From an uncultured Acidobacteriota bacterium (lineage in GTDB: Bacteria > Acidobacteriota > Thermoanaerobaculia > Thermoanaerobaculales > Sulfomarinibacteraceae): a stretch of DNA of 64,000 bases. The notes under the pieces are model-generated. The model worked only from the letters and a program-made list of their open reading frames with translations, did not search any database and had not been told where the DNA came from. The first letter of the stretch is position 1. Each line of letters opens with the position of its first letter. The position numbers were made by a program, and so were the translations under genes. Positions 2-39,705 of this stretch are shown in pieces. The stretch spans positions 82,184 through 146,183 of the forward strand of contig CAWFFJ010000026.1 of the NCBI GenBank assembly GCA_963814875.1. Direction: 5' to 3'.

Positions 2-812
2 GGCTTCGTCGACGTCATCTACTTCGGCACCACCAACGGCTACATCTACAAGCTCGACCTCACCGACGAGGCTGTTCTCACCGATGACGGGACCAACGTG
101 CCGACGGGCATGCGGGTCAGCAACTGGACTTTGCAGCCGATGTACTCCTTCGGAGCCGACATCAAGTTCTACACGAGGCCCGTCCTCGTCCCGTTACGCT
201 TCGACGTCAACGGTTACCAATACGCCCTCGCGATGGGATCCGGCGACCGCGACAACATCGACCAGGAGAGCGCCATGGTCGAGAATTTCTACTTCGTGCT
301 CGAGAATACTCCGGAGGGCAGAGGTAACGAGGCCAACCTCCAGGGTGTCGCCTACGATGCCGACCCGGCGACCGCTGGAACGAACTACTTCAATCCCAAC
401 GGCGACGGCGGGGTGGACCCGACCTTCGGGTGGTACCTCATCCTGCGCGCCGGCGAGAAAGTCTCGACCGATGCCGTGGTGGTGGGTCAGACCGTGGTCT
501 TCCCGACCTTCGTGCGCACGCCGCTAATCCGGACAACCCGCCGCACCGATGGCGACGGCAACGTCATCTGCCAGGCCTCGGGCCTCGGACGCCTGTACCA
601 GGTCAACTACCTCAACGCCAATCCGATCGGCGATGTGCGCGGTGTGGATACCGACTCGGGCTGATCACCGGTCTCGTGCCGGCCGGCGGTGGCGGCACCT
701 CTGGCAATGGCGACGACACCGACTACATTGCCACCGGCCAGGCGGCCGGGTTCGAGGTAGGCCGCTGCCGAACAACAGCGGAACACGCGTGACGAACTGG
801 CGGCAGGAGTAA
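2..812 (+). pseudogene. pilY1: PilY1-like type IV pilus tip adhesin, C-terminal beta-propeller part. The 5' end lies outside the window. The intact ORF stops at 664, but coding signal appears to continue to TAA 810-812 through two 1-nt frame changes.
   Basis: The translation GFVDVIYFGTTNGYIYKLDL...GRLYQVNYLNANP is typical of PilY1/PilC propeller blades. After TGA 662-664, GC3-rich codons continue in frame 1 (LITGLVPAGGGGTSGNGDDTDYIATGQAAGFEV). From about 765 they continue in frame 0 (LPNNSGTRVTNWRQE, then a stop). Confidence 0.6.
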
Positions 813-815
813 GGC

Positions 816-1621
816 ATGCGGATCACGAAGGTCGTCATTGGACTGCTCAGCGGGCTCCTCGTCGCCGCCGCGGCGCGCGGTCGAGATCCCGCTGAAGAAC
901 GGCCCGACGCTCGATGCTTCGTCCTACACGATCACCGGCTCCTACCTGATGGCAACCCTCACCAATGGGCAGCGGGTCGCTTACGACGTTGCGGATGTCG
1001 ACCTCGAGGCGCTCCAGCGCGCCGAGGCGGCCACCGATGCGCCGGCGGAGATCGCGGCGCAGCCGGAGGAGGCCAGGCCACCATCGATTATGGATGCGCG
1101 CGCTGCCGAGGACCGTCCTCGGTCCGTCGTCACGATCACCGACGACGACGTGGCGCCTGCACGTTCCGAGGAGGAGGCGGGTGCCGCAGGAGAGCCAGCC
1201 GTCGCGGCGGGGCCGCCGGCTGGATATACCGAGGGCAGCGGGGTGGTGGTCGACCGGCTTCGAGTCGATCAGGTCGATGAAGGGATCTGGGACGTCCGCG
1301 GCGTCATCGTCAACCGCGGTTCTGCGCCCGCTCGGGATGTCCGCGTTCGGATCGACCTCACTAACGCGGCGGGCGAGGCGCTGGCCTCGCCGACCCTCGA
1401 GCTGTCGCCAGAGCTCGGCATCGGGGAGACCGCGTCTTTCTCCCACCACGTCGAGGCCCCGGAACAGCCGGCGGCGAAGATCCGGGTGTTCTGGACGCAG
1501 GCATCGACGCCAACACAGGCGAACGAAGGTGCGCGCGATACGGGCCCTGCCGCGGCGAAGCCTCAGGGAACGGGAGATACGCCGCAGCCGGTGCCGCAGC
1601 GCCGCAATTCGAGGCTGACCG
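816..1621 (+). pseudogene. Secreted protein of unknown function with an FxLYD/DUF3426-like beta-sandwich C-terminal part. There is an apparent frameshift inside the signal-peptide coding region, and the 3' end is unresolved.
   Basis: ATG 816 has an AGGAG Shine-Dalgarno 7 nt upstream and encodes the signal peptide MRITKVVIGLLSGLLVAAAA. That frame turns to Arg-rich junk after about 876. The plausible mature protein (AVEIPLKNGPTLDASSYTITG...VRGVIVNRGSAPARDVRVRIDLTNAAGEAL) is in the +1 frame (formal ORF 838-2136). GC3 bias in that frame is lost after about 1620. Confidence 0.45.
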
Positions 1622-9880: not shown

Positions 9881-9984
9881 CCGGGAGACCGCCTGTTCTC
9901 TCCGCCGATGCCGTTCTGGCGGCGCGGGGCCGATTCGACGCGGCAAGCCCGCGGCTGGGTTGGTCGCCAGGCGGGCGCGATCCT

Positions 9985-9993
9985 TGCTAGATG
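9985..9993 (+). promoter_or_regulatory. Candidate extended -10 promoter (TGcTAGATG) of the moxR/bat operon
   Basis: TTGCTAGATG lies in the divergent intergenic region, 31 nt upstream of ATG 10025, with GGGGGAGG as the Shine-Dalgarno. Confidence 0.35.
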
Positions 9994-10024
9994 TCACCCA
10001 GGCCAACTGGCCGTTGGGGGAGGC

Positions 10025-17236: not shown

Positions 17237-17242
17237 TACAGT
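17234..17242 (+). promoter_or_regulatory. Candidate extended -10 (TGaTACAGT) 6 nt before ATG 17249, in a leaderless arrangement
   Basis: Reads TGATACAGT-gagctg-ATG. It overlaps the batD stop codon, and there is no Shine-Dalgarno. Confidence 0.35.
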
Positions 17243-17248
17243 GAGCTG

Positions 17249-18376
17249 ATGTCCGCTCCGGAGGTGCGCAGCCTACCGGTCGAGGACCTCGACCCCTTCC
17301 TCGACCGTCACCGATATGCAGCCTTTGCTCCGGCCCGCCTCCAGGTCGATGTGTTCCTTCGCGAAATCCTGCTCAAAGCCAATGATTTCGTTCCGTCAGC
17401 CGCGGGGTCGATTCTGCTCGATCGTCCGAGCGAGCGCGGGCTGACGCCTTCCGAAACTCCGCTCTACTTCGCCGCCACCTTTGGTCCGGCGGGGCCGGAT
17501 CTGCTCGGAAAGAGCCTGGCGGCGGACTGCGGCGTGGTCGGTCGCGTCTATCGCACCGGCGAGCCCTACCTGATGGACGACCCAGACCGGGACCCGAACT
17601 TCTACACCTACTTCGATGAGAGCCAGGGCTTCACGACTACCACACTGATCGCGGTGCCGATTCGGATCGAGCGCACGGTCTGCGGTGTGCTCGAGCTGGT
17701 CAACCGCGCCGACGGCCAGGCCTACACCACGCGGGACCTCGCCCTGCTGGAGATCTTCGCGCGCTACACCTCGGTTTCCATCGAGAACCTGCTCGATGCC
17801 CAACGGGCGGCTGAGATGGCCCGTCGAGACGATCTCACGGGTCTGTACAACGATCGCTTCTTCAACCACCGTTTGACCGAAGAGCTGGTCCGCGCGGACG
17901 TGACCTCGTCCTCGGTCGCGCTCCTGTTCCTTGACCTCGACGACTTCAAGAGCGTCAATGATACCCATGGCCACCTCGCCGGGTCACAGGTCCTCAAGGA
18001 GTTTGGCCTGCTCCTGCGCCAGGTCGTGCCGCAAGACTTCGGCGTCTCGGCCCGCTACGGCGGCGACGAGTTCGTCGTGATCCTCCCCGACCACGACTTG
18101 GTCGCCGCACTCGCAGTTGCGGACAACGTGAGCAAGGCACTCGCCGCGGCCCGGTTCCTGCGCGGGAGCTTCTCTTGGGCGGACGGCCCGGTCCACTGGC
18201 AACGCGCCCTGACCTGCTCGATCGGGGTCGCCGTGTATCCCGATCACGTCGGACGGGACGGCACCACCGATCAGCGCAAGAACATGCTTCTCCGAGAGGC
18301 GGACCAGGCCATGTACCGCGCGAAGGCGTCTGGCAAAGACCAGATCTGCGCCGCGTGTGGGGACCCTCTCGTCTGA
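17249..18376 (+). CDS. GAF-domain diguanylate cyclase (GGDEF)
   Basis: Has an N-terminal GAF-like region, then RDDLTGLYNDRFF...LLFLDLDDFKSVNDTHGHLAG...RYGGDEFVVIL. Confidence 0.9.
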   Translation: MSAPEVRSLPVEDLDPFLDRHRYAAFAPARLQVDVFLREILLKANDFVPSAAGSILLDRPSERGLTPSETPLYFAATFGPAGPDLLGKSLAADCGVVGRVYRTGEPYLMDDPDRDPNFYTYFDESQGFTTTTLIAVPIRIERTVCGVLELVNRADGQAYTTRDLALLEIFARYTSVSIENLLDAQRAAEMARRDDLTGLYNDRFFNHRLTEELVRADVTSSSVALLFLDLDDFKSVNDTHGHLAGSQVLKEFGLLLRQVVPQDFGVSARYGGDEFVVILPDHDLVAALAVADNVSKALAAARFLRGSFSWADGPVHWQRALTCSIGVAVYPDHVGRDGTTDQRKNMLLREADQAMYRAKASGKDQICAACGDPLV

Positions 18377-25681: not shown

Positions 25682-27883
25682 ATGATGAGCGGCGCGGTGA
25701 AGGTCCGCTTCGAGGACATCCTCAACTCCGTCGAGTCCTACCGGCACGACATGAATGAGGATCTGCTTCGCCACGCCTACGTCTTCGCCGCCAACCGCCA
25801 CCAGGGACAGGTCCGGCGTTCGGGCGAGGCGTACATGGTGCACCCGCTGGCCGTGGCCCTGAGTCTCGCCGAGATGGAGCTCGACGAGGTCGCCATCGCC
25901 GCTGGGCTGCTCCACGACATCCTCGAGGACACAGCCTGCACCGTCGACGAGCTGGCGGTCGAGTTCGGACCGGAGGTGACGCGGCTGGTCGTTGCCCTGA
26001 CCAAGATCTCCGGCTATGAGTCCAGCTTCTCGAGCCGCGAAGCGACCGAGGCGGAGAACTTCCGTCGCCTGCTGCTGGCCTCGATGGACGACGTGCGGGT
26101 GATCTTGATCAAGCTTGCCGACCGGCTCCACAACATGCGAACGCTCGAGTTCCTGCGCCGCGAGCGTCAGGTCTCGATCGCACGCGAGACACTCGAGATC
26201 TATGCGCCGATCGCCAACCGGCTCGGTATCGGTGCGATCAAGGGCGAGCTCGAGGATCTCTGTTTCCGCTATCTCCACCCCAAGGAGGCCGAGCGCCTCG
26301 AGCAGGAGGTGGAGGGCCGCGCGAACGCCGCTCAGCGCTGGTTCACCGAGATCCGAACCGAGATCGAGCAGATGCTCGCGGAGCACGGTATCCACCCGAT
26401 GGTGAAGGGCCGGGTCAAGCACCTGTACTCGATCTTCCTCAAGCTGCGCCAGCAGGGAATCGACGTCTCGAATGTGTTCGACTTTCTTGCCTTCCGTGTG
26501 ATCGTCGACACCGTCGCAGAGTGCTACGCGACCCTGGGGCTGATCCACCAGAAGTGGTCGCCGCTTCCTGGTCGGATCAAGGACCACATCGCAATTCCAA
26601 AGCCGAACGCGTACCAGTCATTGCACACCACGGTAATCGGGCCTGAGGGGCATCCGTTCGAGATCCAGATCCGCACCTGGGACATGCACAAGATCGCGGA
26701 GTTCGGGATCGCCGCGCACTGGAACTACAAGGAGAAGGGCTCGGGCACGATCTCGAACGACTCGCGCATCTCGTGGCTGCGCAGCCTGATGACCGACATC
26801 GAGGGGTCGACGCCGCGCGAGTTTCTCGACTCGCTCAAAGTCGATCTCTACCCCGACGAGGTCTACTGCTTCACACCGAGGGGCGACGTCTTCTCATTTC
26901 CGCGCGGTTCGACGATTCTCGATTTTGCCTATCGTGTCCACACCGAGGTCGGCCACCATTGCGTCGGCGGCCGGATTAACGGCCGGTGGGTACCGATCAA
27001 GACCGAGCTCACCAACGGCGACATCATCGAGATCACGACCTCACCCCAGCAGAACCCTCACCACGACTGGCTCAACCACGTCGTCACCAACCGCGCGCGG
27101 TCGAAGATCCGCGCCTGGCTCAAGCGCGAGGAGAAGGCGCGCGCGGTCGAGGTCGGGCGCAAGCTGCTCGAGCGCGAGCTGCGAAAGGGAGGCGTCGGGC
27201 TCCGCAAGGCGACGAGCGCCGAAGCCCTGCAGAAGGTCCTCACCACCCACGGTCTCGCCGCCGAGGAGGACATGCTGGCGGCGATTGGCTTCGGCCGCCT
27301 GGCGGCGTCCACGATCGCCGCCGAGCTGTGCCTTGAAGAGGCGCCGGCCGGCGGTGTCGAATCGGGCATTCCGCGCAGCGAACGGGTCGTGCCGCTTGGA
27401 CGCGAGCCGGCTGTGCTCGAGGTCACCGGTGACGCCGACTTCCTGGTCTACGTGGCCAAGTGCTGCAGTCCGTTGCCGGGCGAGGAGATTGTGGGCTTCG
27501 TCACACGAGGCAAGGGGGTCGCGGTCCACTCCCGCCAGTGTCCGAACGTGAAGAACCTGCTCTACCACCCGGAGCGGGAGATCGAGGTCCGGTGGGCGTC
27601 GTCCGCCGGCAGCGCGCGGTCGCAGGCGACCCGGGTCGACCTCGACATGGTGTTCGAGGACCAGCCTGGGATGCTCGCGGCGATCTCCCACCAGATCTCG
27701 TCGGAAGGGTGCAACATCCTCAGCGGGCAGCTGCGCACGGACGGCGACCACACCGGATTCGCCGCCATGACGATCGCGGTGCGAGACGCAGCCCAGCTCA
27801 ATCGGGTGCTGGAGAAACTGTTGGAGCTGAACGGGATGCAGCAGGTCGAGAGGCGAGGAGCCCCTACGCGAGCGCGGGCTTGA
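25682..27883 (+). CDS. relA: Bifunctional (p)ppGpp synthetase/hydrolase (RelA/SpoT homologue)
   Basis: 733 aa. Has the HD hydrolase motif (MVHPLAVA...LHDILEDT), a synthetase domain, TGS (YCFTPRGDVFSFPRGST) and a C-terminal ACT-like domain. Confidence 0.92.
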   Translation: MMSGAVKVRFEDILNSVESYRHDMNEDLLRHAYVFAANRHQGQVRRSGEAYMVHPLAVALSLAEMELDEVAIAAGLLHDILEDTACTVDELAVEFGPEVTRLVVALTKISGYESSFSSREATEAENFRRLLLASMDDVRVILIKLADRLHNMRTLEFLRRERQVSIARETLEIYAPIANRLGIGAIKGELEDLCFRYLHPKEAERLEQEVEGRANAAQRWFTEIRTEIEQMLAEHGIHPMVKGRVKHLYSIFLKLRQQGIDVSNVFDFLAFRVIVDTVAECYATLGLIHQKWSPLPGRIKDHIAIPKPNAYQSLHTTVIGPEGHPFEIQIRTWDMHKIAEFGIAAHWNYKEKGSGTISNDSRISWLRSLMTDIEGSTPREFLDSLKVDLYPDEVYCFTPRGDVFSFPRGSTILDFAYRVHTEVGHHCVGGRINGRWVPIKTELTNGDIIEITTSPQQNPHHDWLNHVVTNRARSKIRAWLKREEKARAVEVGRKLLERELRKGGVGLRKATSAEALQKVLTTHGLAAEEDMLAAIGFGRLAASTIAAELCLEEAPAGGVESGIPRSERVVPLGREPAVLEVTGDADFLVYVAKCCSPLPGEEIVGFVTRGKGVAVHSRQCPNVKNLLYHPEREIEVRWASSAGSARSQATRVDLDMVFEDQPGMLAAISHQISSEGCNILSGQLRTDGDHTGFAAMTIAVRDAAQLNRVLEKLLELNGMQQVERRGAPTRARA

Positions 27884-28061
27884 CCACCTTGCCGGAGCGG
27901 ATGCAGCGGGTGCACACCCGCACCGTCTTGGTCGATCCGTCAACCACCGCGCGGACGCGCTGCAGGTTGGGCAACCAGCGCCGCTTGGAGACGTTGTGGG
28001 CGTGAGAGATCGTATGTCCAGTCATCGGGCCCTTGCCGCAGATTTCACATCGCTGCGCCAT
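27864..28061 (-). CDS. rpmB: 50S ribosomal protein L28
   Basis: MAQRCEICGKGPMTGHTISHAHNVSKRRWLPNLQRVRAVV. GGAGG lies 7 nt upstream of the start. Confidence 0.92.
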   Translation of the reverse strand: MAQRCEICGKGPMTGHTISHAHNVSKRRWLPNLQRVRAVVDGSTKTVRVCTRCIRSGKVVKPALA

Positions 28062-28106
28062 CGCTGATCCTCCTCAGGAGTCTCCCCAGGCGCGGGGAGG
28101 CCAATT

Positions 28107-28135
28107 GTGATACCACAACCCGTGGCGGAAGGCAA
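28107..28135 (-). promoter_or_regulatory. Candidate sigma70-type promoter of rpmB
   Basis: On the minus strand: TTGCCT (28135-28130), 17-nt spacer, TATCAC (28112-28107). Confidence 0.35.
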
Positions 28136-28177
28136 GATCCAGCGTCCCGAGGCCGCTATTTGTTGGCGTCTATGTTC

Positions 28178-28207
28178 TTGACAGTTCGCCTCGCCGTTTG
28201 CTAGCCT
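28178..28207 (+). promoter_or_regulatory. Candidate promoter of the pil operon
   Basis: TTGACA (28178-28183), 18-nt spacer, TAGCCT preceded by TGc (TGCTAGCCT 28199-28207). It lies about 60 nt upstream of GTG 28266. Confidence 0.35.
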
Positions 28208-28265
28208 GCGACATAGAGGGGTTATGAATCATTCTGCGAAAACTTCGGGGAACAAGGTGTGAGCC

Positions 28266-29315
28266 GTGTTTGGAAAGAGTAAGAAGCAGGTCGTCGGCTG
28301 CGATATCGGTTCCTCGTCGATCAAGCTGGTGGAACTTAAGGCGTTGAAAAACGGCGAGTTCCAACTCCAGCACGCGGCGGTCTCCGAGCTCAGCCCGGAG
28401 GCCATCGTGGATGGCGCCATCATGGACTCGTCCCTCGTCGTCGACGCCTTGTCACGGCTGATTTCCGAGAGCAACGTCCGGAATCCCAACTTCGGAACGT
28501 CGCTTTCGGGGCACTCGGTAATCATCAAGAAAATCCAGCTTCCGTCGATGACCGAGGCCGAGCTGGCCGAGTCGATCCAATGGGAAGCGGAACAGTACAT
28601 TCCCTTTGACATCAACGATGTGAATTTGGACTACGTTGTTCTCGGCCAGACCGGTGGCGACACCATGGACGTGCTGCTGGTTGCGGTCAAGAAAGACCGC
28701 ATCGCCGACTACACCTCGGTCGTCGTACAGGGCGGAAAGGAGCCCGTGCTGGTCGATGTTGACGTGTTCGCTCTGCAGAACGCCTACGAGACGAACTACG
28801 GTATCGGCGACGAGACCGTGGCCCTCGTCAACGTGGGTGCTTCTGTGATGAACATCAACATAATCCACCACGGAGCGTCGATTTTTTGGCGAGACGTGGC
28901 GTTCGGCGGCAACCAGTTCACGGAGGCGATTCAGCGAGAGCTCAATCTACCGCGCGAAGACGCCGAGCGCGTCAAGCTCGGTGACCGGGTCGCAGAGCAC
29001 TCTATCCAGCAGGTACTCGGAGTTCTCAACAGTGTGTCCGAGGACCTCGCTGCGGAGCTCCAGAAAACTATCGACTTCTTCGTGGCGACCTCGTCGGTCG
29101 ATCGACTCGACAAGATCGTCCTCGCCGGCGGGTGCGCTCAGGTGCTCAACCTCGACGAGGTGCTCAAGGAGCGATTCCAGGTCGCCGTCGAAGTGATGAA
29201 CCCGTTCCGCAACATCCGGTACAGCGAGTCGGACTTCGATCCCGAGTGGATCAATCGGCACGCGCCGTCGATGGCGGTGGCGGTCGGCCTGGCCGTGCGC
29301 ACGCTCGGAGAATGA
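28266..29315 (+). CDS. pilM: Type IV pilus assembly protein PilM (actin-like ATPase fold)
   Basis: Begins MFGKSKKQVVGCDIGSSSIKLVELK. The length and the downstream pilNOPQ genes support the call. AAGGTG lies 6 nt upstream of the start. Confidence 0.9.
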   Translation: MFGKSKKQVVGCDIGSSSIKLVELKALKNGEFQLQHAAVSELSPEAIVDGAIMDSSLVVDALSRLISESNVRNPNFGTSLSGHSVIIKKIQLPSMTEAELAESIQWEAEQYIPFDINDVNLDYVVLGQTGGDTMDVLLVAVKKDRIADYTSVVVQGGKEPVLVDVDVFALQNAYETNYGIGDETVALVNVGASVMNINIIHHGASIFWRDVAFGGNQFTEAIQRELNLPREDAERVKLGDRVAEHSIQQVLGVLNSVSEDLAAELQKTIDFFVATSSVDRLDKIVLAGGCAQVLNLDEVLKERFQVAVEVMNPFRNIRYSESDFDPEWINRHAPSMAVAVGLAVRTLGE

Positions 29316-29319
29316 CGCG

Positions 29320-29922
29320 ATGATCAAGATCAACCTTGTCGCTGAGGCACCACAGGCCGCGGCCTCCCGTCGCCAGCGCCCCCAGGTCTCGCTCGGCGCG
29401 CGACAGGGAGACGTCATCCTGCTCGGCATTCTCGTGCTGGCCGCCGCGATCACCGGCGGCCACTACTATCTTCTGCACTCGAAGCAGGAGCACGTGAAGC
29501 AGATCGAGAGAGCCCGCAAGCAGGAGCGCGACGAGCTGCAGGTATTCATTCTGAAGGTGCAGGAGTTGGAAAAGAAGCGCACCATCCTCAAGCACAAGAT
29601 CGACGTCATCAACAACCTCAAGGACAGCCAGCAGGGTCCGGTGCGGATCATGGACGAGGTCTCCCGCGCGCTTCCCGACCTCGTATGGCTTGAGCGCCTC
29701 AACCTGAGCGGCGACCTCCTGACTCTCGTGGGTCGCGCCGTGGACGAGAACAACGTCGCGAACTACATCTCGAACCTTGACGCGTCGCCCTTCTTCCAGG
29801 AGCCCACACTCAAGGACCTCGCCCGCGCGGACACGGACACCTTCCGGTTCACGCTGACGTGCGTCTTCACCTATGCGCCGAAGGAGATCGCCGGGGCCAG
29901 CGGCGAGCGCTCCGGGACGTGA
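29320..29922 (+). CDS. pilN: Type IV pilus assembly protein PilN
   Basis: Begins MIKINLV, followed by a single transmembrane segment, a coiled coil, and VWLERLNLSGDLLTLVGRAVDENNVANYISNL. Confidence 0.85.
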   Translation: MIKINLVAEAPQAAASRRQRPQVSLGARQGDVILLGILVLAAAITGGHYYLLHSKQEHVKQIERARKQERDELQVFILKVQELEKKRTILKHKIDVINNLKDSQQGPVRIMDEVSRALPDLVWLERLNLSGDLLTLVGRAVDENNVANYISNLDASPFFQEPTLKDLARADTDTFRFTLTCVFTYAPKEIAGASGERSGT

Positions 29923-29941
29923 GCAGGGGAGGAGCGAAGCC

Positions 29942-30538
29942 ATGGCGCTCGACCTGAACGACAAACCCTGGTACGTGGCGCTGATCGTCGGCCTCGTCCT
30001 CGGTGGCGCGCTGTATGCCGCGATGCACTTCTACGTTTTCGAGGACATCCGTGCGGACATCGCGAGCCGCGAGACGAACATCGCCAAGCTCGAGCGCGAG
30101 ATCGAGAAGGGACGCGCGGCCCAGCGCGACCTGCCCAAGCTCGAGGAGGAGATTCGCAACGATGAGCTCGAGCTCGACCGGCTGAAGCAGATCCTGCCGA
30201 CGCGGCGCGAAACCGACCGGCTGATCAAGAAGGTTCGCCAGCTCACCGAGGCCGGTCACTTCACGCTCGTCCGCTTCACGCCTCAGCCCTTCGTCGAGAA
30301 AGACTTCTACTACGAGTGGCCGATCGCAGTGAACCTGGAGGGTACCTATCACGAGCTCGGACTTCTGTTTGACCGTCTGAGCCGCTTCTCACGAATCATC
30401 AACGTCACCGAGCTCACGATCCTGCCCGCCCGAGCGAAGGGCACGGACGCGACCATCACTGCGACATTCACCGCGCGCACCTTCATCTACAAGGACGAGA
30501 ACGCCGGAAGCCCCAAGGCGGCGGGAGGTGCCCGATGA
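29942..30538 (+). CDS. pilO: Type IV pilus assembly protein PilO
   Basis: Has a transmembrane segment, a coiled coil, and EWPIAVNLEGTYHELGLLFDRLSRFSRIINV. AGGGGAGGAG lies upstream of the start. Confidence 0.85.
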   Translation: MALDLNDKPWYVALIVGLVLGGALYAAMHFYVFEDIRADIASRETNIAKLEREIEKGRAAQRDLPKLEEEIRNDELELDRLKQILPTRRETDRLIKKVRQLTEAGHFTLVRFTPQPFVEKDFYYEWPIAVNLEGTYHELGLLFDRLSRFSRIINVTELTILPARAKGTDATITATFTARTFIYKDENAGSPKAAGGAR

Positions 30539-31056
30539 GCGTGCGGACCCTGCCACTGGCGGCCCTCGTCGCGGTCGCCGCATGGAGCGGCCCGGCGTTC
30601 GCCCAGGCGCCCGCCTCGCCGACTCCGGCGATGGCCGAGCAGCCGTTCGATGACGAGGACCTCGACGTGTCGCGCATCGACCAGATCCTGCGCGGCGAGC
30701 AGCAGGTTCTCCAGGGCGATATGTTCACCTACGATCCGGCCGGACGGCGCGACCCGTTTCAGTCCCTGCTCAATACCCGGCCCGGTGAGAAGGAGCCTGA
30801 AGTCGCGCGTCCTCCAGGCCTTGCCGGGATGTTGATCGAGGAAGTCCGGGTACAGGGCATCGTGTCGACCACGAGCGGTATACTGGCCTTCGTCCAAGGG
30901 CGCGACAAGCTCAGCTACATCATTCGGCCCGGGACCAAGCTGTTCAACGGCGAGGTCGAGCGGATTACGCCGTCCGAGGTCGTGTTCAAGCAGCAGGTGA
31001 GCGATCCGAAGCAGCTGAAACCCTACGAAGAGGTCGTCCGCAGGCTGTCGGATTAG
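30535..31056 (+). CDS. pilP: PilP-like pilus assembly protein
   Basis: Has a signal peptide. Its size and its position between pilO and pilQ fit PilP. It has a C-terminal beta-domain (GIVSTTSGILAFVQGRDKLSYIIRPGTKLFNGEV). ATGA overlap with pilO. Confidence 0.7.
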   Translation: MSVRTLPLAALVAVAAWSGPAFAQAPASPTPAMAEQPFDDEDLDVSRIDQILRGEQQVLQGDMFTYDPAGRRDPFQSLLNTRPGEKEPEVARPPGLAGMLIEEVRVQGIVSTTSGILAFVQGRDKLSYIIRPGTKLFNGEVERITPSEVVFKQQVSDPKQLKPYEEVVRRLSD

Positions 31057-31078
31057 CGTGAGGGTGAAGGAAGTTCGG

Positions 31079-33570
31079 ATGAAAGTGGGGGATGGCATGA
31101 TGATCAAGAACGCCCGCATCCTGGTCGTAGCGGCGGCTTCCTTCGTGCTGCTGGGATCTGGCATCGCGGACGCGGCCACGAGCGCCGTTCCCGTTCTCGA
31201 GGGCTTGGCCACCGAGTCCGGGCCCGACGGGCCGGTGATCCGACTGCGGACGAGCGGCGACCTCGATACCGTGCACTACAGCCCGCAGCCCGGCGTGTGG
31301 ATCGTGGAGATGCCCGAGGCGACGTGGGCCGAGGCAGCGGGAGTGGTCAGCGACCCGGCCATAGGTCTCGATCGCGCGGAGCTCGCCCATGTTGAGGAGT
31401 TTGGCAAGCGGGTGACCCGCCTCACGGTCTGGCTGGCCGAACCGGCCCAGCTCGACGTCGAGCGAGCGGCGGATGGTCTCGAGCTCCGCTTCCAGCCCCT
31501 GCAGGGCCCGCGGGCGGTGGTGCCGCCTAAGGTTGAGAATGACGGCGTAGAGGTCGCGTCGGCACGTGCGCCTGCGGAACCCGCAGCAGACGAGATCGTT
31601 CCCAGTGAGCGTCCGGCACTGCCTCCCGTAGTGATCGCCTCTGCCGATCAACCGGCGCCCGCCGATTCCAGGACCACCAGCGCCGCCTCCGGAGAGAGCC
31701 TCCTCGAGGTCCTCCCCGTCGCGGTCGGCGACGGCGTCCGGATCGAGCTTCGAGCCGACGGCGAGCTCGTCGGTCAGGCATTCACGCTGCCGGAGCCCGA
31801 CCGGATCGTGGTCGACCTGCCGGGGGTCGTCAACCGGGTCTCCCAGAGTGTGGTCTCGGTTGCCTCGCCTCTGGTCCGCCGAGTGCGCGTGGCCCAGTTC
31901 CGCTCTGCTCCCAACCCGGTGACTCGGGTGGTGATCGATCTCACGAGCAAGGCCGCCCACCAGCTCGTCGAAACGCCCAACGGGGCGGTTCTCATCGTTG
32001 GCGACGCCACCTCTTCCGGAGCTGGCGCCGTCGCTGTGGCGGCCGCGAGCGGCGACACCGCCGTTCGGAAGGGTGCCGGGACCATCGAGATGCACCGCTC
32101 GGCTCCGGTGGAGCCGGATCCGGCAGTCGCCGATCCGGCGACCGCCGCCCAGCCTGCAGGCCTGCCTGCCGAGCTGTTTGAGGTGCCCGAGCGCCAGGCC
32201 GCGGCCCCTGAGGCTCCGGCGCCCGACCGCAACCCGTTCGTCGCCGACCCTTCGCAGCTGATCGAATCGGCGACTCCGGGGAGGGTGCTCGATCTCCCCA
32301 CGACCACGGCGGAAACCTACAGCAGCACTGAAGTTGCCAGCCAGGAGCAGCAGTTCACCGGGGAGCCGATCACGCTCACGCTGAAGGACGCTGACATCGC
32401 CGATGTGCTCAAGACCTTCTCTGCGCTGACCAACCTCAACATCGTTCTCGACCCGGGTGTGCGCGGCTCGGTCACGGTCGAGCTGCACGACGTGCCCTGG
32501 GACCAGGCGCTCGACCTCATCCTCAAGATCAACAATCTCGACTATGTCCTCGAGAACAACGTCCTGCGCGTCGCCCCGACCAGCAAGCTTGCCAAAGAGA
32601 AGGCCGACGCGGTGAACTTCCTCAAGCAGCAGGAGTCGGCGCGACCGCTGAAGACGGTCATCAAGCCGGTCTCCTATGCCAAGGCCCAGGACATCAAACA
32701 GATCCTCACCCAGGACTCGACCCTGCTGTCCGACCGCGGCACGGTCACCATCGACGCGCGGACCAACACGCTCATCCTTCGCGACACCGTGGACCGCGTC
32801 GAAGGCGTGCTGCGACTCGTCGACATCCTCGACCAGCCGACACCGCAGGTGGTCATCGAGGGCCGGATCGTCGAGACGACCCGTGACTTTTCCTACAGCC
32901 TCGGCGTCAACTGGGGGTTCAGCGGAGTCAAGGACGCCGCCCACGGCAACGACACCGGGCTCGACTTCCCGAACAGCGCCACCGCCGACGGCAGGGTGGG
33001 GCTCGAGACCGCGGGCAACGGCACCCTGTCCTTGACCTTCGGCGACATCCTCAACACCTTCAACCTCGACTTCCTGCTCTCGGCGGCGGAGTCGGACGGC
33101 GTTGTCAAGATCGTCTCCACGCCGCGGGTGACCACCCAGAACCTGCAGCGTGCATCGATCCGCTCGGGCCTTCAGCTCCCGGTCCAGACGGTCGCCAACA
33201 ACACCGTCACCGTGCAGTACGTCGACGCGACGCTGCGCCTCGACGTGCTGCCCCAGATCACGGCCGAGGGCACCGTGATGCTGGACATCAACATCCGCAA
33301 GCAGGAGGCTCGCAGGCCCTCGGAGCAGCGGTGGCAGGCGGGAACAACGTCCCGATCTTCACCCGCGACGCCCAGACGTCGCTGCTGGTGCGGGACGGCG
33401 GCACCACGGTCATCGCCGGGATCTACCAGATCAACGATCAGAACTCCCAGGACCGAGTCCCAGGACTGTGGAAGGTTCCGATTCTCGGGCATCTCTTCAA
33501 GAACAAGACAGTCTTCAATCGGCACGACGAGCTGCTGATCTTCATCACCCCGAGAATCGTCAAGTATTAG
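31079..33570 (+). pseudogene. pilQ: Type IV pilus secretin PilQ, interrupted by one apparent 1-nt frame change near 33300-33330. This is either a genuine disruption or a sequence error.
   Basis: Has a signal peptide, two AMIN-like segments (RIVVDLPGVV...TRVVIDLT), secretin N domains, and VVIEGRIVETTRDFSYSLGVNWGF. Homology in frame 2 stops after DINIRKQEA. The secretin C-terminus GGNNVPIFTRDAQTSLLVRDGGTTVIAGI...ELLIFITPRIVKY is in frame 1 (ORF 33331-33570). Confidence 0.85.
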
Positions 33571-33583
33571 GTGGAGGCAGACG

Positions 33584-34207
33584 ATGAAACCCTTCGTCCA
33601 GGTGAGCGTCATCGCGGTCGTCGCCGCTCTCGCTGTGTCGTGTGGCGGCAACAGCACGCTCAACGACACCCAGGCGGTGGTCGTGCTTTCGGTGAACATC
33701 GACAAGTACACGCCCGACGTCCCCGTCTGCTTCCCGATCGACCTCGTGATCGAGAACATGAGCGTCAACTCCCAGGCCAAGGACCCGACGACCGGGCTCA
33801 CCAGCAACCAGGACGTCGTCCTGTCACGGTGGGTCGTGACGCCCTACCGTACCGACGGCGGGACCGCGGTCTCGCCGGCGTGGAGCCACGACCTCGACGT
33901 CTACGTCCCTGCTGGCGGCACTGCGACCCTCAACAACTACCGGGTCTATCCGGCGGAGTACCTGACCCAGGCGCCGCTGATCTATCTGCTGCCGGAGAAC
34001 GGCGGCTTCGACCCCGAAACCGGCAACCGCAACATCCGGGAGACCCTCAAGGTCGAGATCTTCGGCCAGACCGTGTCCGGCAAGAGTGTCTCCGTCGTCT
34101 TCCACGTCGCCTTCAACTTCTCGTGCGATGGAGGCGGGACGCCCACCGGACCGACGCCCACGCCTCAGGCCACGCCGAAGGCGATGCTGGGCGACGGGCA
34201 GAACTAG
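33584..34207 (+). CDS. Lipoprotein of unknown function directly downstream of pilQ
   Basis: Has a lipobox (VVAALAVS-C-GGN) and the Shine-Dalgarno GGTGGAGG. It is beta-rich, with a Pro/Thr tail. I recognised no known family. Confidence 0.75.
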   Translation: MKPFVQVSVIAVVAALAVSCGGNSTLNDTQAVVVLSVNIDKYTPDVPVCFPIDLVIENMSVNSQAKDPTTGLTSNQDVVLSRWVVTPYRTDGGTAVSPAWSHDLDVYVPAGGTATLNNYRVYPAEYLTQAPLIYLLPENGGFDPETGNRNIRETLKVEIFGQTVSGKSVSVVFHVAFNFSCDGGGTPTGPTPTPQATPKAMLGDGQN

Positions 34208-34224
34208 GGCGGGGGGCAGGCACC

Positions 34225-37200
34225 ATGAAAAGAGCTCTCACCTGCATCGCAATTCTCGGGCTGATCGTGCTCGCCTCGTGCTCTGGCGACAGCCCGTCGC
34301 CGCCACCGGTGCCGACCCCGGCGAGCACGACCTGGGCGATCACCTCGCTCACCGTGTCGGACTCGACGCTCTACGTCGGCTCGACGGTCACCGTGACCGC
34401 GACGGTGACCAAGGACGGTTCCCCGGCGCCCGACGGGACCGCCGTCGAGTTTTCGATTGGCGGTGTTGTGCTGGCCAATGTCGCGACCAGCGGCGGTAGG
34501 GCAACGGCCGATTTCGTGGCGACAGCCAAAGGCATATACACGATCCAGGCCCGGGTCGTCGGCGTCACCCGCACGGTAGACGTGAGCTACGTCCTCCCCG
34601 AACCGGACGGCACCCTGCTGATCTACAACGTGAACCCCACCGAGGGCGCGATCGCGGGCGGCGAGCAGGTCACGCTCACCGGCAACGGTATCCGCGGCCC
34701 GGTCGAGGTCACCTTCACGGTCAACGGGACGGCGTTCCCGGCACGGGTACTGAGCGTGGTGCCGTCCACCTCGAGCTCGCCCGGCACGATCACCGTCGAG
34801 ACCCCGCGGGTCACGGTCGCCGACCCGACCATTGACAACCTTGCAACCATCACCGTCAAGACCGCGGTCGGGACGGGCAAGGACCAGAGTCAGGTCCTCA
34901 CCGATGCCTTCACCTTCCTGCGCGAGATCTTCACCCCGGTGATCTACAGCGTGTACCCGGACCAGGGCACCGCGCGCGGCGGTGACCAGGTGACGATCCT
35001 CGGCGCCAACCTCGTCGGCGTGACACGGGTGACCTTCGGCGGGCGCGAGGCCCAGGTGGTCAGCGAAAGCGCTGACGGCCACCAGGTGACGGTCATTACC
35101 CCGCCCTACGGCGCGACTCCGCTGCAAGACAACACTCCCGTGACGGTCGTGGTCGAGACTCCCGGCGGCAACGCCAGCAAGGACGACGCGTTCATCTACC
35201 TGGCCGACCAGCCGCAGCCGAGCATTGCGGGGCTCGCCCCCGCGGCCGGCCCGATCGACGGCGGCACCCGGGTCACCATCTTCGGCTCCGGCTTCCAGTT
35301 CCCGGCGCAGGTCTTCTTCACCGCTGGCGGGGTCGCCAAGGAGGCCTCGGTCATCAGCGTCAACGACGACACCTCACCGGCCGACAACGACGAGATCGTG
35401 TGCGTGACGCCGGACTTCTCGGACAGCACTCAGACGACCCCGTTCACGGCCGACGTCCGGGTGCTCAACGTCGAGACCGGCCGCGAGGGCAGCAAGAGCG
35501 CTGCCTTCACCTACGGCGACCGCCTCTTCGTCAGCGGCAACGATCCGGCCGACGGCGGCGAGGGCACCGAGGTGACGATCTTCGGCTCCGGCTTCGTCAG
35601 CCCGCTCCAGGTGGACTACCTCGGCTTCGGTAGCCCGCTGCGGGTCGATCCCACGTCCATCTCGGGTTCTCAGATGGTGGTCCGGATGCCGGCGCCGACG
35701 AACCCGAGCTGCGCGGCCGTGACCGGCGCATTCCGTGTGCGCCTGCTCGAGAGCCCCAACAACCCGGTCGAAGGCGGCTCCTTCACCTACTTCGGCAACA
35801 CGCCGACGCTCAGCTCCATCACGCCCTCCACGGTCGACGAGATTGCCGACGGTGTCGGAGTTGATCCGTCCTCCGCTGTGCTCACCGGAAAGAACTTCTC
35901 GACCTCGGTGCAGGTCGCGATCAACGACATCCTGCTGAACTCCGGCGCCGTCCAGGCGGTCAACGACACCACCATCAACATCACTCAGCTGCCGGCGCCC
36001 AACGACCTCGGTCTGGTGTTCGACACCGTCGCCTGTGTCAATGGCGACGGCGTGGCCGGCTTCCGTAAGGTGCCCACTTCGGTCGACGTCACCGTCACCA
36101 ACACCAACGCCAACTGCAGCGACACGCTGACCAACGGGCTGACCTACCAGCCCCAGAACACGGACTGCGTGGTCGAGCCCAACATCGTGCTCGTGCCGGG
36201 CGCCGGATCGACCCTGACCCTGCCCGCCACCGGCGCGGGGAGCTGCTCGACCTTCGAGCAGGTCACCGTGCGCAACACCGGAGGGTCGACCCTCGACTGG
36301 ACGGCCGCGATCACTGGACCGTTCTCGTTCAGCGGCAGCTCGGGCGACCTGAACCGAAGCGGCTCCCTCGTGCCGGGCACGTCGAGCACCCTCGAGGTTC
36401 ACTTCTGTCCGACAGTCGACGACAACTCCAACCAGTTCGGCCAGGTCCAGTTCCTCTCGAACGACCCGAACGACAATCCGGTGACCCTCACGCTCCAGGG
36501 CCAGGAGGCCGCCGGTCAGCTCGAGCTGACGCCGGGCAACCTCAACTTCCCGTCCACCGCTGGCGGCTCGTGCAGTGCCGCGAAGCAGGCAACCATCCGC
36601 AACACCGGGCTCGACGACCTGTCGTACAACTCGACGCTGACCGGACGGTTCTTCTTCGACGCTGGCGCGAGCCAGCAGGGACCGGTGGCCGGCAGCCTGC
36701 CGCCGGGGACCGATACCCTGGTCGACATCTACTTCTGTCCGAACCTCGGTGCCAGCGGGACACTGACCGGTCAGCTCAGCGTCGACAGCGACGACCCGGT
36801 GAACCCGGTGCGAACCATCGACCTCAGCGGCGACGCCGGTGCTCCGGACATCTCCGTAACACCCAACCCGCTGATCTTCACGGAGGCCATCCCGGCGGTG
36901 GGCCCGGGACCGACCTGCTCGAGCGCCAAGCAGCTCACGATCGCGAACTCTGCTGGTGCGAGCGACGACCTCGACTTCGGGCTCACACTCGTCGGCGACT
37001 TCTACCTCAACAGCAACGCGACCGGACAGGGTCCGCAGATCGGCTCGCTGGTGCCGGGCGCGAGCCAGCCGGTCAACATCTACTTCTGCCCGGCGATGGG
37101 CTCGGTGGGTCTTGTCACCGGGACCGCCCGCGTGACCAGCAACGATCCGGATCAGCCGCTGGTAGTCAACGACCTCCAGGGAACGGCCACCGGCCCCGAG

Positions 37201-37872
37201 ATCGATGTCCTGCCCGCCTCGCTCGAGATCGAGTTCACTCCCGACGTTCCCGCCGGGAGCTGCTCCGCCACCGCCAAGACGGTGACCATCCGCAACCTCC
37301 AACCGCCCGCCTCCCTGGTGCTCGACTACTCGGTCACCATTACCGGGCCGTACTTCCTGAACTCCAACGGCACCGGTCAGGCGACTGCGGGTCAGGTCTC
37401 GATCGGCGGCTCCAAGCCTATCGACGTCTACTTCTGCCCGACGGTCGACGACAACAACGTTCAGACCGGCGTCTTCCGGATCGACTCGAACGATTTCGAC
37501 GAGTCGACCGTCAACGTGCAGCTCACCGGCAAGGAGGCCGAGCCGGACATCGCAACCACTCCGGCCGACGGCGGCACGCTGACGCTTCCGACAACCGCCT
37601 TCGGCGTGTGCTCGGCGTACAGCGACATCACCGTTGACAACAACGGGCTCGCGGACCTCGTGTTCTCGGCCACTCTGTCGGGTGCCGCCTTCGAGCTCGA
37701 AACGACCTACACCAACATTGTGGTGCCGCCGAGCGGGAGTACCACTGTCAGGGCTCGGTTCTGCCCCACTGCGGACGACGGACAGCTCTACACCGGCTCC
37801 GTGAGCATCACCAGCAACGACGTCACGAACCCGACCGTGACCATCAACCTCGAAGGTCAGGAAACTCCCTGA
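34225..37872 (+). CDS. 1215-aa surface lipoprotein: a Big-like Ig domain, about six IPT/TIG-like domains, and five tandem choice-of-anchor-D / ASH-like modules
   Basis: Has a lipobox (IVLAS-C-SGD) and an invasin-like Ig segment (VGSTVTVTATVTKDGSPAPDGTAVEF). IPT/TIG signatures repeat (P.I.S..P..G...GG..VTI.G.GF). It ends with five modules of about 110 aa. Confidence 0.85.
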   Translation: MKRALTCIAILGLIVLASCSGDSPSPPPVPTPASTTWAITSLTVSDSTLYVGSTVTVTATVTKDGSPAPDGTAVEFSIGGVVLANVATSGGRATADFVATAKGIYTIQARVVGVTRTVDVSYVLPEPDGTLLIYNVNPTEGAIAGGEQVTLTGNGIRGPVEVTFTVNGTAFPARVLSVVPSTSSSPGTITVETPRVTVADPTIDNLATITVKTAVGTGKDQSQVLTDAFTFLREIFTPVIYSVYPDQGTARGGDQVTILGANLVGVTRVTFGGREAQVVSESADGHQVTVITPPYGATPLQDNTPVTVVVETPGGNASKDDAFIYLADQPQPSIAGLAPAAGPIDGGTRVTIFGSGFQFPAQVFFTAGGVAKEASVISVNDDTSPADNDEIVCVTPDFSDSTQTTPFTADVRVLNVETGREGSKSAAFTYGDRLFVSGNDPADGGEGTEVTIFGSGFVSPLQVDYLGFGSPLRVDPTSISGSQMVVRMPAPTNPSCAAVTGAFRVRLLESPNNPVEGGSFTYFGNTPTLSSITPSTVDEIADGVGVDPSSAVLTGKNFSTSVQVAINDILLNSGAVQAVNDTTINITQLPAPNDLGLVFDTVACVNGDGVAGFRKVPTSVDVTVTNTNANCSDTLTNGLTYQPQNTDCVVEPNIVLVPGAGSTLTLPATGAGSCSTFEQVTVRNTGGSTLDWTAAITGPFSFSGSSGDLNRSGSLVPGTSSTLEVHFCPTVDDNSNQFGQVQFLSNDPNDNPVTLTLQGQEAAGQLELTPGNLNFPSTAGGSCSAAKQATIRNTGLDDLSYNSTLTGRFFFDAGASQQGPVAGSLPPGTDTLVDIYFCPNLGASGTLTGQLSVDSDDPVNPVRTIDLSGDAGAPDISVTPNPLIFTEAIPAVGPGPTCSSAKQLTIANSAGASDDLDFGLTLVGDFYLNSNATGQGPQIGSLVPGASQPVNIYFCPAMGSVGLVTGTARVTSNDPDQPLVVNDLQGTATGPEIDVLPASLEIEFTPDVPAGSCSATAKTVTIRNLQPPASLVLDYSVTITGPYFLNSNGTGQATAGQVSIGGSKPIDVYFCPTVDDNNVQTGVFRIDSNDFDESTVNVQLTGKEAEPDIATTPADGGTLTLPTTAFGVCSAYSDITVDNNGLADLVFSATLSGAAFELETTYTNIVVPPSGSTTVRARFCPTADDGQLYTGSVSITSNDVTNPTVTINLEGQETP
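36169..37869 (+). repeat. Five tandem, diverged coding repeats of about 330-350 nt inside the large lipoprotein
   Basis: Module starts are at 36169, 36511, 36838, 37189 and 37540. Each has an N-proximal Cys (GSCS, TCS or VCS) and a distal (V/I/R)(H/Y/F)FCP motif, then an SNDP-like segment ending L.G.E/A. Confidence 0.75.
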
Positions 37873-37885
37873 CGACGAAGGAACC

Positions 37886-37912
37886 CGCCCCGGCCCTTCA
37901 AGGGCCGGGGCG
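37886..37912 (+). terminator. Hairpin terminator after the large lipoprotein gene
   Basis: CGCCCCGGCCC-TTCAA-GGGCCGGGGCG is a perfect 11-bp stem, followed by the pyrimidine/T-containing TCCTCATCTCT. Confidence 0.55.
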
Positions 37913-37924
37913 TCCTCATCTCTG

Positions 37925-39352
37925 ATGGACGAACGCATCGCCGAACTTCGTGCCGAGCTGCGGGAGGATCCGACCTCCCGCCTGTTCTATCAGCTCGGTG
38001 AGCTGCTGCGCCGCGAGGAGGCGCATGAGGAGGCGGTGCGCGTGCTGCGCGGCGGCCTCGAGCACAACCCGCGCTACGTCGCCGCCTGGGTCGCGCTCGG
38101 GCGCTCGCTGGCCGCGCTCGAGCGCCACGAGGAGGCCGAGAAGGCCGGCGCGAGGGCCCTCGAGCTCGACCCCGAGAACGCGGTCGCCGCGCGGATGATC
38201 GGCGAGAGTGCAGCCGCCCGCGGTGACCTCGTGCGCGCGATCAAGGGGCTCAAGCTCGCCCGCGTGCTCTCGCCGCGCGACCAGGACCTCGAGGACCGCA
38301 TTGCCGAGGTCGAGGCCGGGCTGGCCAAGCGCGGTCTGCTCGAGGCCCCGGCCCACCGGCATGAGCACTCGGGACCCGTGCCCCGGCTCGGGGCGGATCT
38401 CAGGCCGGGCCCCGGCGGACTGACGACGGTTTCCGTCCGTCGCCTCGAGCTGCCGCCGCTCGAGATGGCCCAGGTCGGGGACGGCGATCCGTTCCTCCTC
38501 GGGCGTACCGGCGACAGCGGGATCTGGCTGCTCGGCGACGACGTCTTCGAGGCGCCCGAGCCGGAACCGGAGCCCGAGGCATTCGGTCCGTCGGACGAGC
38601 CCGTCGAGCCGGACGTGGTCGATCTGCCGGACTGGGAGATTGGCGAGGCGCCGGCCGCCGCCAAGCGGTTCGAGAGTCCGTCCGCAGTCGACGAGCCCCC
38701 GCCAGACTGGGAGGTTGACGACTTCGAACAGCCCGAAGTGCCGATCCCCGACGAGACCGGTGGCTGGGAGGTCGCGACCCCGGTGGCGTGGGCAACGGCT
38801 CCAGAGGCAACCTGGCGACCACAGGAGGTCGTCGGTGAGCTCGAAGCGGCCGGGGAGACTGTCTTCCCAGGAGCCGACCAGCGTGATCTCTCCGGCGAGC
38901 CGGAGCTTCTCGAGGCCGGGCTGGAAACCGCATCGGAGCTTGTCGAGGTTGAGAGCGCCCAGGGCCGCTACGAGGTCGATCCCGGACACGAACTGGAGTC
39001 GGAGTCCGAGCCGCTGTCGGAGAGTGACGAGGAGGAGTGGTCCGAGTTCGAGGAGATCCCTCTGCCGACGTTGACCCTCGCCCGCTTGGCCTACGAGCAG
39101 GGCGATCTTCGGCTCGCGGAGCGCACGTTGCTCGGGGTGCTCGAACGCCAACCGCACTCTGCGGAGGCTCGCGCCCTGCTGGAGCAGATCCGCAGCGAGC
39201 GTTCGCCGGTCCCCACGACGGCTCCCGCGACGGATGAGGCTGCCGCCGCCGCTGAGGCGCAGGAGGTGGCGAGCCCTGCGATCGCGAAGATCGCTGCGTT
39301 GCGTGCGTGGGCGGACACGATTAGACTGGCTGCGGAGCAGCGGCACCCGTGA
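37925..39352 (+). CDS. TPR-repeat protein with a long acidic Pro/Glu/Asp-rich central region
   Basis: Has N-terminal TPRs (AVRVLRGGLEHNPRYVAAWVALGRSLAALERHEEAEKAGARALELDPEN). The acidic middle carries PDWE repeats. A C-terminal TPR is present (LARLAYEQGDLRLAERTLLGVLERQPHSAEA). There is no obvious Shine-Dalgarno. Confidence 0.8.
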   Translation: MDERIAELRAELREDPTSRLFYQLGELLRREEAHEEAVRVLRGGLEHNPRYVAAWVALGRSLAALERHEEAEKAGARALELDPENAVAARMIGESAAARGDLVRAIKGLKLARVLSPRDQDLEDRIAEVEAGLAKRGLLEAPAHRHEHSGPVPRLGADLRPGPGGLTTVSVRRLELPPLEMAQVGDGDPFLLGRTGDSGIWLLGDDVFEAPEPEPEPEAFGPSDEPVEPDVVDLPDWEIGEAPAAAKRFESPSAVDEPPPDWEVDDFEQPEVPIPDETGGWEVATPVAWATAPEATWRPQEVVGELEAAGETVFPGADQRDLSGEPELLEAGLETASELVEVESAQGRYEVDPGHELESESEPLSESDEEEWSEFEEIPLPTLTLARLAYEQGDLRLAERTLLGVLERQPHSAEARALLEQIRSERSPVPTTAPATDEAAAAAEAQEVASPAIAKIAALRAWADTIRLAAEQRHP

Positions 39353-39705
39353 ACTTCGAGAACACCCTGTCGGACCTCGTGGTCGCCTGCCCGGGAGCGC
39401 TGGGTGCGGCGATCGTGGACCCGGACGGCATCCCGTTGGCCTTCGCGCCCGACAAGGATCCAGCGCTTGAGGTCCTCGGGGCCGAGTTGAGCTCGATCCT
39501 GCGGGACATCGACCAGGCCGGCCGCGAGCTCGATCATGGTCCGCTGCACCAGCTCAGTGTCACCGCCGAGAGCGCAACCGTGGTCGTCACAACCACGGGC
39601 GGCGGCTACTTCATCGTCCTCGTTCTCTCGCCCGACGGAGTAGCCGGAAGGGCCCGATTCCTCTCCAGGCTGACCGGCGAGCGGCTCTACTCCGAGTTCA
39701 TCTGA
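39349..39705 (+). CDS. Roadblock/LC7 (MglB-like) domain protein
   Basis: 118 aa. LSDLVVACPGALGAAIVDPDGIPLAF...LHQLSVTAESATVVVTTTGGGYFIVLVLSPD fits the Roadblock/LC7 pattern. GTGA overlap with the TPR gene. Confidence 0.8.
   Translation: MNFENTLSDLVVACPGALGAAIVDPDGIPLAFAPDKDPALEVLGAELSSILRDIDQAGRELDHGPLHQLSVTAESATVVVTTTGGGYFIVLVLSPDGVAGRARFLSRLTGERLYSEFI

Follow-up and report, generated by a model that had tools for sequence, protein, structure and literature searches.

Does the interrupted pilQ gene of an uncultured Thermoanaerobaculia (Acidobacteriota) organism record the loss of a secretin, or an error in the sequence from which the gene is read? The window that we analysed is a stretch of 64,000 nucleotides from a public metagenome contig of 226,765 nt; it carries a pilM-pilN-pilO-pilP-pilQ operon on the + strand (28266-33570), in which the genes abut or overlap and pilQ stands last (Table 1). 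The initial annotation had offered both readings, an inactivated secretin and an assembly or basecalling error. Each retains some probability in our analysis, and the evidence favours the error: most likely the pilMNOPQ operon of the organism is intact, and a local error in the consensus of the public contig is the most probable source of the break at 33311-33315. Searches with orthologues put the window among uncultured Thermoanaerobaculia, close to MAGs labelled 'Sulfomarinibacteraceae'.

Table 1. Features of the window that bear on the pilQ break, in order of position.
Feature	Position	Strand	Observation
pilY1 C-terminus	650..812	+	breaks at ~655 and ~763; frame 2 to frame 1 to frame 3
Conserved 265-aa secreted protein gene after pilY1	816..1618	+	breaks at ~876 and ~1606; frame 3 to 1 to 2
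pilM	28266..29315	+	intact; Pfam PilM_2 positions 1-339 of 340, E=7e-80
pilN	29320..29922	+	intact; Pfam PilN; 200 aa, equal to relatives
pilO	29942..30538	+	intact; Pfam PilO positions 2-145 of 145
pilP	30535..31056	+	intact; Pfam PilP; 173 aa, equal to relatives
pilQ 5' part, frame 2	31079..33310	+	signal peptide to first half of secretin domain, ...DINIRKQEA
Five extra bases CGCAG	33311..33315	+	change the reading frame of the gene from 2 to 1
Out-of-frame tail of 819-aa product	33311..33538	+	translation RRPSEQRWQAG...TTSC, then stop
pilQ 3' part, frame 1	33316..33570	+	ALGAAVAGGNNVPIFTRD...ELLIFITPRIVKY; second half of secretin domain
Conserved lipoprotein gene directly 3' of pilQ	33584..34207	+	intact; lipoprotein-type N-terminus in ORF

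Secretin homology in the window is divided between two frames. The Pfam model Secretin (PF00263) is matched at positions 1-89 by the frame-2 product (aa 676-756; E=1.7e-15) and at positions 93-169 by the frame-1 product (E=5.4e-23), with only three model positions absent between the two matches; the domain is not complete in one polypeptide as the sequence is written, and becomes complete once 33311-33315 are removed. The two open reading frames extend over 31058/31079..33538 (frame 2) and 33331..33570 (frame 1), and in a scan of the window the codon-usage signal is lost by frame 2 at 33307 and gained by frame 1 at 33313. Upstream of the secretin domain, frame 2 encodes PF11741 (AMIN), PF07660/PF21305 (STN, type_II_gspD_N0) and PF03958 (Secretin_N); the AMIN, N0 and N1 matches all lie above their gathering scores and follow the expected order. 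The coordinates fit the intact 828-aa orthologue, in the start at 31079 as well as in the two stops (33538, 33570). The frame break is present at this position, far beyond chance, and the initial description of a secretin frame broken once, with an Arg/Ser-rich stretch in frame 2 up to the stop at 33538 and the true C-terminus in frame 1 up to 33570, is borne out in full.

The same gene order from pilM to pilQ is found in two close relatives (L162 and L169, described below), and PilM has 349 aa in the window and in both of them. The pilO gene, with its start set as in the 198-aa orthologues, aligns with that of L162 without gaps, and the exact PilN protein of the window is found on the public 226,765-nt contig. 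The lipoprotein gene that follows pilQ belongs to a 10-member cluster and invariably adjoins pilQ.

The nature of the lesion emerges from a comparison at the DNA level with five independent close relatives from four data sources: a JGI metagenome contig (L081; 3300062818; 95.4% nucleotide identity; intact orthologue P0006), an NCBI MAG (L162; GCA_964588265.1; 95.2% over 8.6 kb; intact orthologue P0167), an ENA contig (L169; ERZ25039500 contig_5949; aligned over 22.4 kb, with 97.9% in the first 13.4 kb and 95.3% in the remainder; intact orthologue P0168), and two Logan contigs (L170 from SRR9700626, 96.6% identity; L171 from ERR11523667, 97.3% identity). The loci of P0168, P0167 and P0006 have a gene order in common with the window over more than 20 kb, and the start and stop of these orthologues are identical to those of the window. 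Where all five relatives read GAGGCC followed directly by GCCCTCGG, the window has GAGGCTCGCAGGCCCTCGG, which makes it longer by a net 5 nt; in the wider context, ...AAGCAGGAGGCC running directly into GCCCTCGGAGCAGCGG... in the five relatives stands against ...AAGCAGGAGGCTCGCAGGCCCTCGGAGCAGCGG... in the window, and the lesion site with its extra bases is GAGGCTCGCAGGCCC. The change can be written as 33311-33315 CGCAG plus C>T, or equivalently as C>TCGCAG, with the placement of the five extra bases ambiguous within 33310-33316. Thirteen more distant orthologues also lack the extra bases, their site being as long as in the five close relatives, and a single ORF spans the site in 137 orthologous loci. 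In the comparison with orthologous pilQ genes that the initial annotation had proposed, the five relatives at 95-98% identity are intact and free of the extra bases. The comparison also corrects the earlier interpretation of a single missing base, which had the change of phase right: the window is 5 nt longer than every close orthologue, not 1 nt shorter.

Removal of 33311-33315 yields a 2487-nt gene, the 828-aa product of which aligns with the L162 orthologue without gaps. The loop between the KQE and PIF motifs has 13 residues in 131 of the 137 orthologues (KQEA-ALGAAVAGG in the closest ones) and 15 residues in the other six, which are distant (65-72% identity) and carry their extra residues elsewhere in the loop. 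The joined product put forward earlier, KQEA-SQALGAAVAGG, fits only in part, since it gives a loop of 15 residues and the five closest relatives all have 13. As a template for the inserted bases we found neither a second copy of the 13-mer, which is unique in the window, nor a nearby direct or inverted repeat that would account for the insert, and the indel lies inside no homopolymer or repeat. A 5-nt indel in such a context is unusual for a basecalling error, an observation that counts against an artefact.

No sign of relaxed selection (raised dN/dS, indels or stops) was seen in the 252 nt after the lesion in comparison with L162: this segment shows four synonymous and one non-synonymous differences and a dN/dS of 0.08, in a comparison of low power, with no further indel or stop. 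The dN/dS before the break is 0.19, and pilM, pilN, pilO and pilP are free of indels, with dN/dS values of 0.04-0.31 (0.04 for pilM). Given this absence of decay, the break in pilQ, as far as can be judged from the sequence, either happened very recently or has no biological origin.

The same lesion, or the same strain, was sought in other data. The truncated 819-aa PilQ, out-of-frame tail included, is the public protein P0169, which occurs solely on the 226,765-nt source contig (NCBI, ENA). A cluster look-up places this protein, the lipoprotein, PilM and the 79-aa fragment on that contig and nowhere else. An exact-pattern scan of metagenome contigs across the break site returned no match, and exact look-ups of the same four products in a contig index were likewise empty; a protein-guided scan of metagenome contigs returned only relatives at no more than 91% identity, every one of them intact. 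The out-of-frame tail, used as a protein query, matched nothing beyond P0169, so that no independent assembly with the lesion came to light. The proteins that hypothetical repairs would give (828 aa; 830 aa with an added Ser-Gln; 266/267 aa for the second broken gene) are absent from a collection of 15 billion proteins.

Four further frame breaks lie at the C-terminus of pilY1 and in the gene that follows it. In tblastn, the PilY1 of a related locus (L165) matches the window at 2-661 in frame 2, at 655-762 in frame 1 (94% identity) and at 765-809 in frame 3 (93%), with one-base gaps at 655 and 763. The breaks in the secreted protein gene are based on DNA alignment with four related loci (L165-L168) together with the tblastn frames: the gene is read in frame 3 at 816-875, in frame 1 at 877-1605 (90% identical to P0121) and in frame 2 over its last codons, whereas the homologues P0121 and P0122 read MRITKVVIGLLSGLLVAAAAAAVEIPLKNG... 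uninterrupted and the homologues end in ...PQRRLRG-stop in one frame. Four single-base frame breaks thus fall within 1 kb, and the shifted segments have 90-94% protein identity, compared with 71% for in-frame PilY1. On the evidence of these alignments the four breaks at 650-1610 appear to be consensus errors, because four recent and real indels in 1 kb without decay do not make a credible history; this would mean that consensus indels do occur in the source contig.

All other genes of the window with a Pfam match have full-length domain matches, as judged by the codon-usage scan and Pfam over about 55 ORFs. Low-scoring tails in tilS (59546-59816) and in a GT2 gene (47195-47327), considered as possible broken genes, were judged ordinary. 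The five frame breaks of the window all fall in type IV pilus genes, which occupy about 11% of it, and about 50 other genes show full-length Pfam matches. Breaks limited to pilus genes also fit a real loss of piliation, and to that extent this distribution counts against an artefact.

Related assemblies carry small indels as well. L169, from an ENA assembly whose contigs are named 'contig_N' in the style of Flye, has at least eight non-triplet indels (1, 1, 1, 2, 1, 1, 2 and net +32 nt) in its TIG and TPR genes, including a run of +1, +1, +1, +2 and +1 within 130 nt; these TIG-repeat and TPR genes, downstream of pilQ, are fragmented in L169 and intact in the window. Over the 22.4 kb aligned between the two, the pilQ indel is the only frame-breaking indel on the side of the window, and surroundings as clean as these count against an artefact. 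Two long-read MAG loci of the Microflora Danica (MFD) project, L048 and L055, have one 1-nt pilQ insertion each. The MFD long-read catalogue was built from nanopore data only, with Flye for assembly and a single round of Medaka for polishing, and its authors checked the MAGs for nanopore-associated errors (PMC12313526). Errors of nanopore-only Flye and Medaka assemblies resemble the breaks described here in being small non-triplet indels, sometimes clustered, that split conserved genes without decay (five sites in the window, at least eight in L169, one each in L048 and L055); they differ in that most are 1-2 nt long, as against 5 nt for the pilQ indel of the window, a contig of presumed nanopore origin. 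Contig names and neighbouring data suggest that the source contig comes from a nanopore project; a literature search did not find the sequencing platform of ERR11571143, ERZ25039495 or ERZ25039500. More than one strain is present in ERR11571143: a Logan contig from this run is 100% identical to window positions 27850-28867, and another contig, from a second strain, is 96-100% identical to positions 1446-2253 and only 75-90% identical upstream. This two-strain pattern suggests strain mixing in the assembly or recombination.

Taken together, these observations lead us to regard the pilQ break as probably an artefact of consensus calling or assembly, a judgement that includes the case of a true +6 insertion with one base missing from the record. 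An artefact is favoured because indel errors occur both in the window contig and in sister assemblies; because pilQ shows no decay and pilMNOP are intact; because all five near relatives, from four data sources, are without the insert; because independent assemblies with the same lesion were not found; and because the strain mixture in ERR11571143 is of the kind in which consensus calling fails. The source contig may derive from an assembly of the nanopore-only Flye plus Medaka type, and the pilQ indel may have arisen when the consensus was called or polished, perhaps because the variable loop is not the same in all coexisting strains. It is possible, although less likely, that pilQ is inactivated in the population by a real insertion of 5 nt (or a C>TCGCAG delins) of very recent date: the indel is 5 nt long, complex and outside a homopolymer, the window has no other frame-breaking indel in 22.4 kb of otherwise clean alignment, and the breaks are confined to pilY1, its neighbour and pilQ, with about 50 other genes intact. 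Frameshifted pseudogenes make up a few percent of the genes in real genomes, a background that we counted in support of a real frameshift. However, a dN/dS of 0.08 downstream and the lack of other lesions in pilMNOPQ speak against it, as do the other four breaks, which resemble errors rather than evolution; the pilus-only pattern may instead reflect strain-variable surface genes that are hard to polish, and the lesion and its tail appear in no independent assembly while the five near relatives are intact. That all the breaks (in pilQ, at the C-terminus of pilY1 and in the gene after it) are real and specific to the pilus, in a population on its way to losing its type IV pili, for instance because pilus-dependent phages select against them, seems to us unlikely.

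Two other explanations concern how the window sequence should be read. As a sub-case of the error, the strain may truly have a 6-nt in-frame insertion (GCC TCG CAG GCC, adding Ser-Gln) and the record lack one C, and the protein would then have 830 aa and a 15-residue loop. It reproduces the window exactly, with zero substitutions, as GAGGCC-GCCCTC plus TCGCAG minus one C, and the 15-residue loops of six among the 137 orthologues indicate that two additional residues are tolerated; but those six are distant (65-72%) and have their extra residues elsewhere in the loop, the loop has 13 residues in each of the five relatives at 95-98% identity, the TCGCAG insertion would have to be private with an 830-aa protein absent from the 15-billion-protein collection, and two events would be needed where one delins suffices. 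We therefore consider this reading improbable. Alternatively, the two frames could be functional, through programmed −1 frameshifting or transcriptional slippage, or as a two-polypeptide secretin whose second part starts at a GTG (33331) behind GGAG (33322-33325). The phase, −1, is the usual one in programmed frameshifting, positions 33303-33308 read AGGAGG, and the arrangement GGAG-N5-GTG precedes the 79-aa ORF. Against this, an XXXYYYZ heptamer is absent in every phase between 33250 and 33345, the only homopolymer of at least four bases in that interval is CCCC at 33251, the site is not conserved and the relatives have a single ORF, the shift would add two residues found in no close relative, and the GGAG and GTG are ordinary coding sequence in intact orthologues. 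We know of no split secretin. With no slippery heptamer at hand, and with the two-frame arrangement found in no relative, we regard both programmed frameshifting and a split secretin as all but excluded.

The choice between an artefact and a real frameshift matters for what is said about the organism. Taken at face value, the record would have it annotated as non-piliated or non-competent, with pilQ counted as a pseudogene; the evidence suggests instead that the operon is intact and that the break is a problem of sequence quality. With at least four other small indels in the pilus-associated genes of the contig, inferences of gene loss from this MAG need checks at the level of reads. If the frameshift were true, the product would consist of 751 native residues and a 68-residue out-of-frame tail; it would keep the periplasmic domains and half of the secretin domain, and lose Secretin positions 93-169 (about residues 815-892 of Myxococcus xanthus PilQ). 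By analogy with known secretin architecture, an outer-membrane channel would not be expected from such a protein, and neither would surface pili or the motility and DNA uptake that depend on them. Selection, for instance by pilus-specific phages, could favour a variant of this kind, which would be a recent loss-of-function mutation of an ordinary type, in a gene that is well known.

Comparison with characterized systems shows nothing new in the gene of the window: both the PilQ secretin and the pilMNOPQ operon that encodes it are of the ordinary kind. The repaired C-terminal 405 aa (query 3-403) match residues 477-892 of M. xanthus PilQ (3JC8/3JC9; E=5e-74 for 3JC8) and residues 287-713 of Pseudomonas aeruginosa PilQ (6VE2; E=4e-64), and the same query range matches 6W6M with E=3e-56. 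Without repair, the gene departs from PilQ at the equivalent of about residue 815 of the M. xanthus protein, its last 77 residues being encoded in another frame. In both M. xanthus and P. aeruginosa, the domain order of PilQ (AMIN, N0/STN, N1, secretin) and the pilMNOPQ operon are as in the window.

Besides the break in pilQ, the window carries four frame breaks, all within positions 650–1618, which interrupt the C-terminus of pilY1 and the conserved gene that follows it (see table). As written, pilY1 ends prematurely at 664. The downstream 265-aa gene can be read either as 154 aa of junk or as a 432-aa run-on ORF, the latter overlapping the next gene (1622–2140). Positions 1446–2253 are 96–100% identical to a second-strain contig (L165/L166; ENA ERZ25039495 contig_84451; Logan ERR11571143), whereas identity to this strain is only 75–90% across the 1.4 kb upstream of 1446, which comprises the end of pilY1 and most of the 265-aa gene; the run with the second-strain contig also holds the window's own strain. 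The jump in identity at 1446–2253 has two candidate explanations: the segment recombined recently, or the consensus is chimeric, with strains collapsed into one sequence.

Indels are also found in related assemblies. Positions 13136–18322 of L169, a relative that is 98% identical (ENA ERZ25039500 contig_5949), correspond to window 34237–39349; here, two genes lie in pieces because of many 1–2-nt indels, five of them within 130 nt: the large TIG/Ig-repeat lipoprotein gene, with fragments of 128, 902 and 81 aa, and the TPR gene, with fragments of 93 and 245 aa. In the window each is one uninterrupted ORF, of 1211 and 476 aa respectively. In two Microflora Danica long-read MAGs, pilQ itself is frameshifted by a single-base insertion, at about 6265 in L048 (CAVPHA010000027.1) and about 6459 in L055 (CAVQQV010000019.1); both positions are unrelated to the pilQ site of the window.

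A GGAG followed, after 5 nt, by GTG at 33331 (window 33322–33333) resembles a translation start, with its ribosome-binding site, for the 79-aa C-terminal fragment of pilQ. The resemblance is probably coincidental, as the same string is present inside intact orthologous genes. P0168, which represents the cluster containing the 95–98% identical full-length PilQ orthologues, was absent from the first homologue search listing, and these orthologues surfaced only through look-ups of ribosomal protein L28 and of the cluster. The word-index search can therefore overlook the closest relatives.

Downstream of pilQ, the mechanically called ORF at 33571–37872 (1433 aa) is inflated: its first ~220 codons are Arg-rich, out of frame and overlap the separate lipoprotein gene directly after pilQ. 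The real TIG/Ig gene begins at 34237; its 1211-aa product opens with a lipoprotein signal, MKRALTCIAILGLIVLASC, and contains TIG/Ig-like repeats. This gene and the TPR and Roadblock/LC7 genes also come after pilQ in relatives.

Coordinates of frame breaks and genes in the window
Feature	Position	Setting
Frame breaks, pilY1 C-terminus	about 655 and about 763	within 650–1618
Frame breaks, conserved 265-aa gene	about 876 and about 1606	within 650–1618; after pilY1
MoxR-type AAA ATPase, DUF58, two VWA proteins (one with TPR repeats), BatD	within 9902–17233	
ORF without Pfam match	11900–12793	inside the 9902–17233 set
GAF-GGDEF diguanylate cyclase	17237–18373	after the 9902–17233 set
TPR protein	37922–39349	downstream of TIG/Ig-repeat gene
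Roadblock/LC7 (MglB-like) protein	39349–39702	downstream of TPR gene

Elsewhere in the window, the gene set at 9902–17233 resembles a Bat/aerotolerance-like operon.
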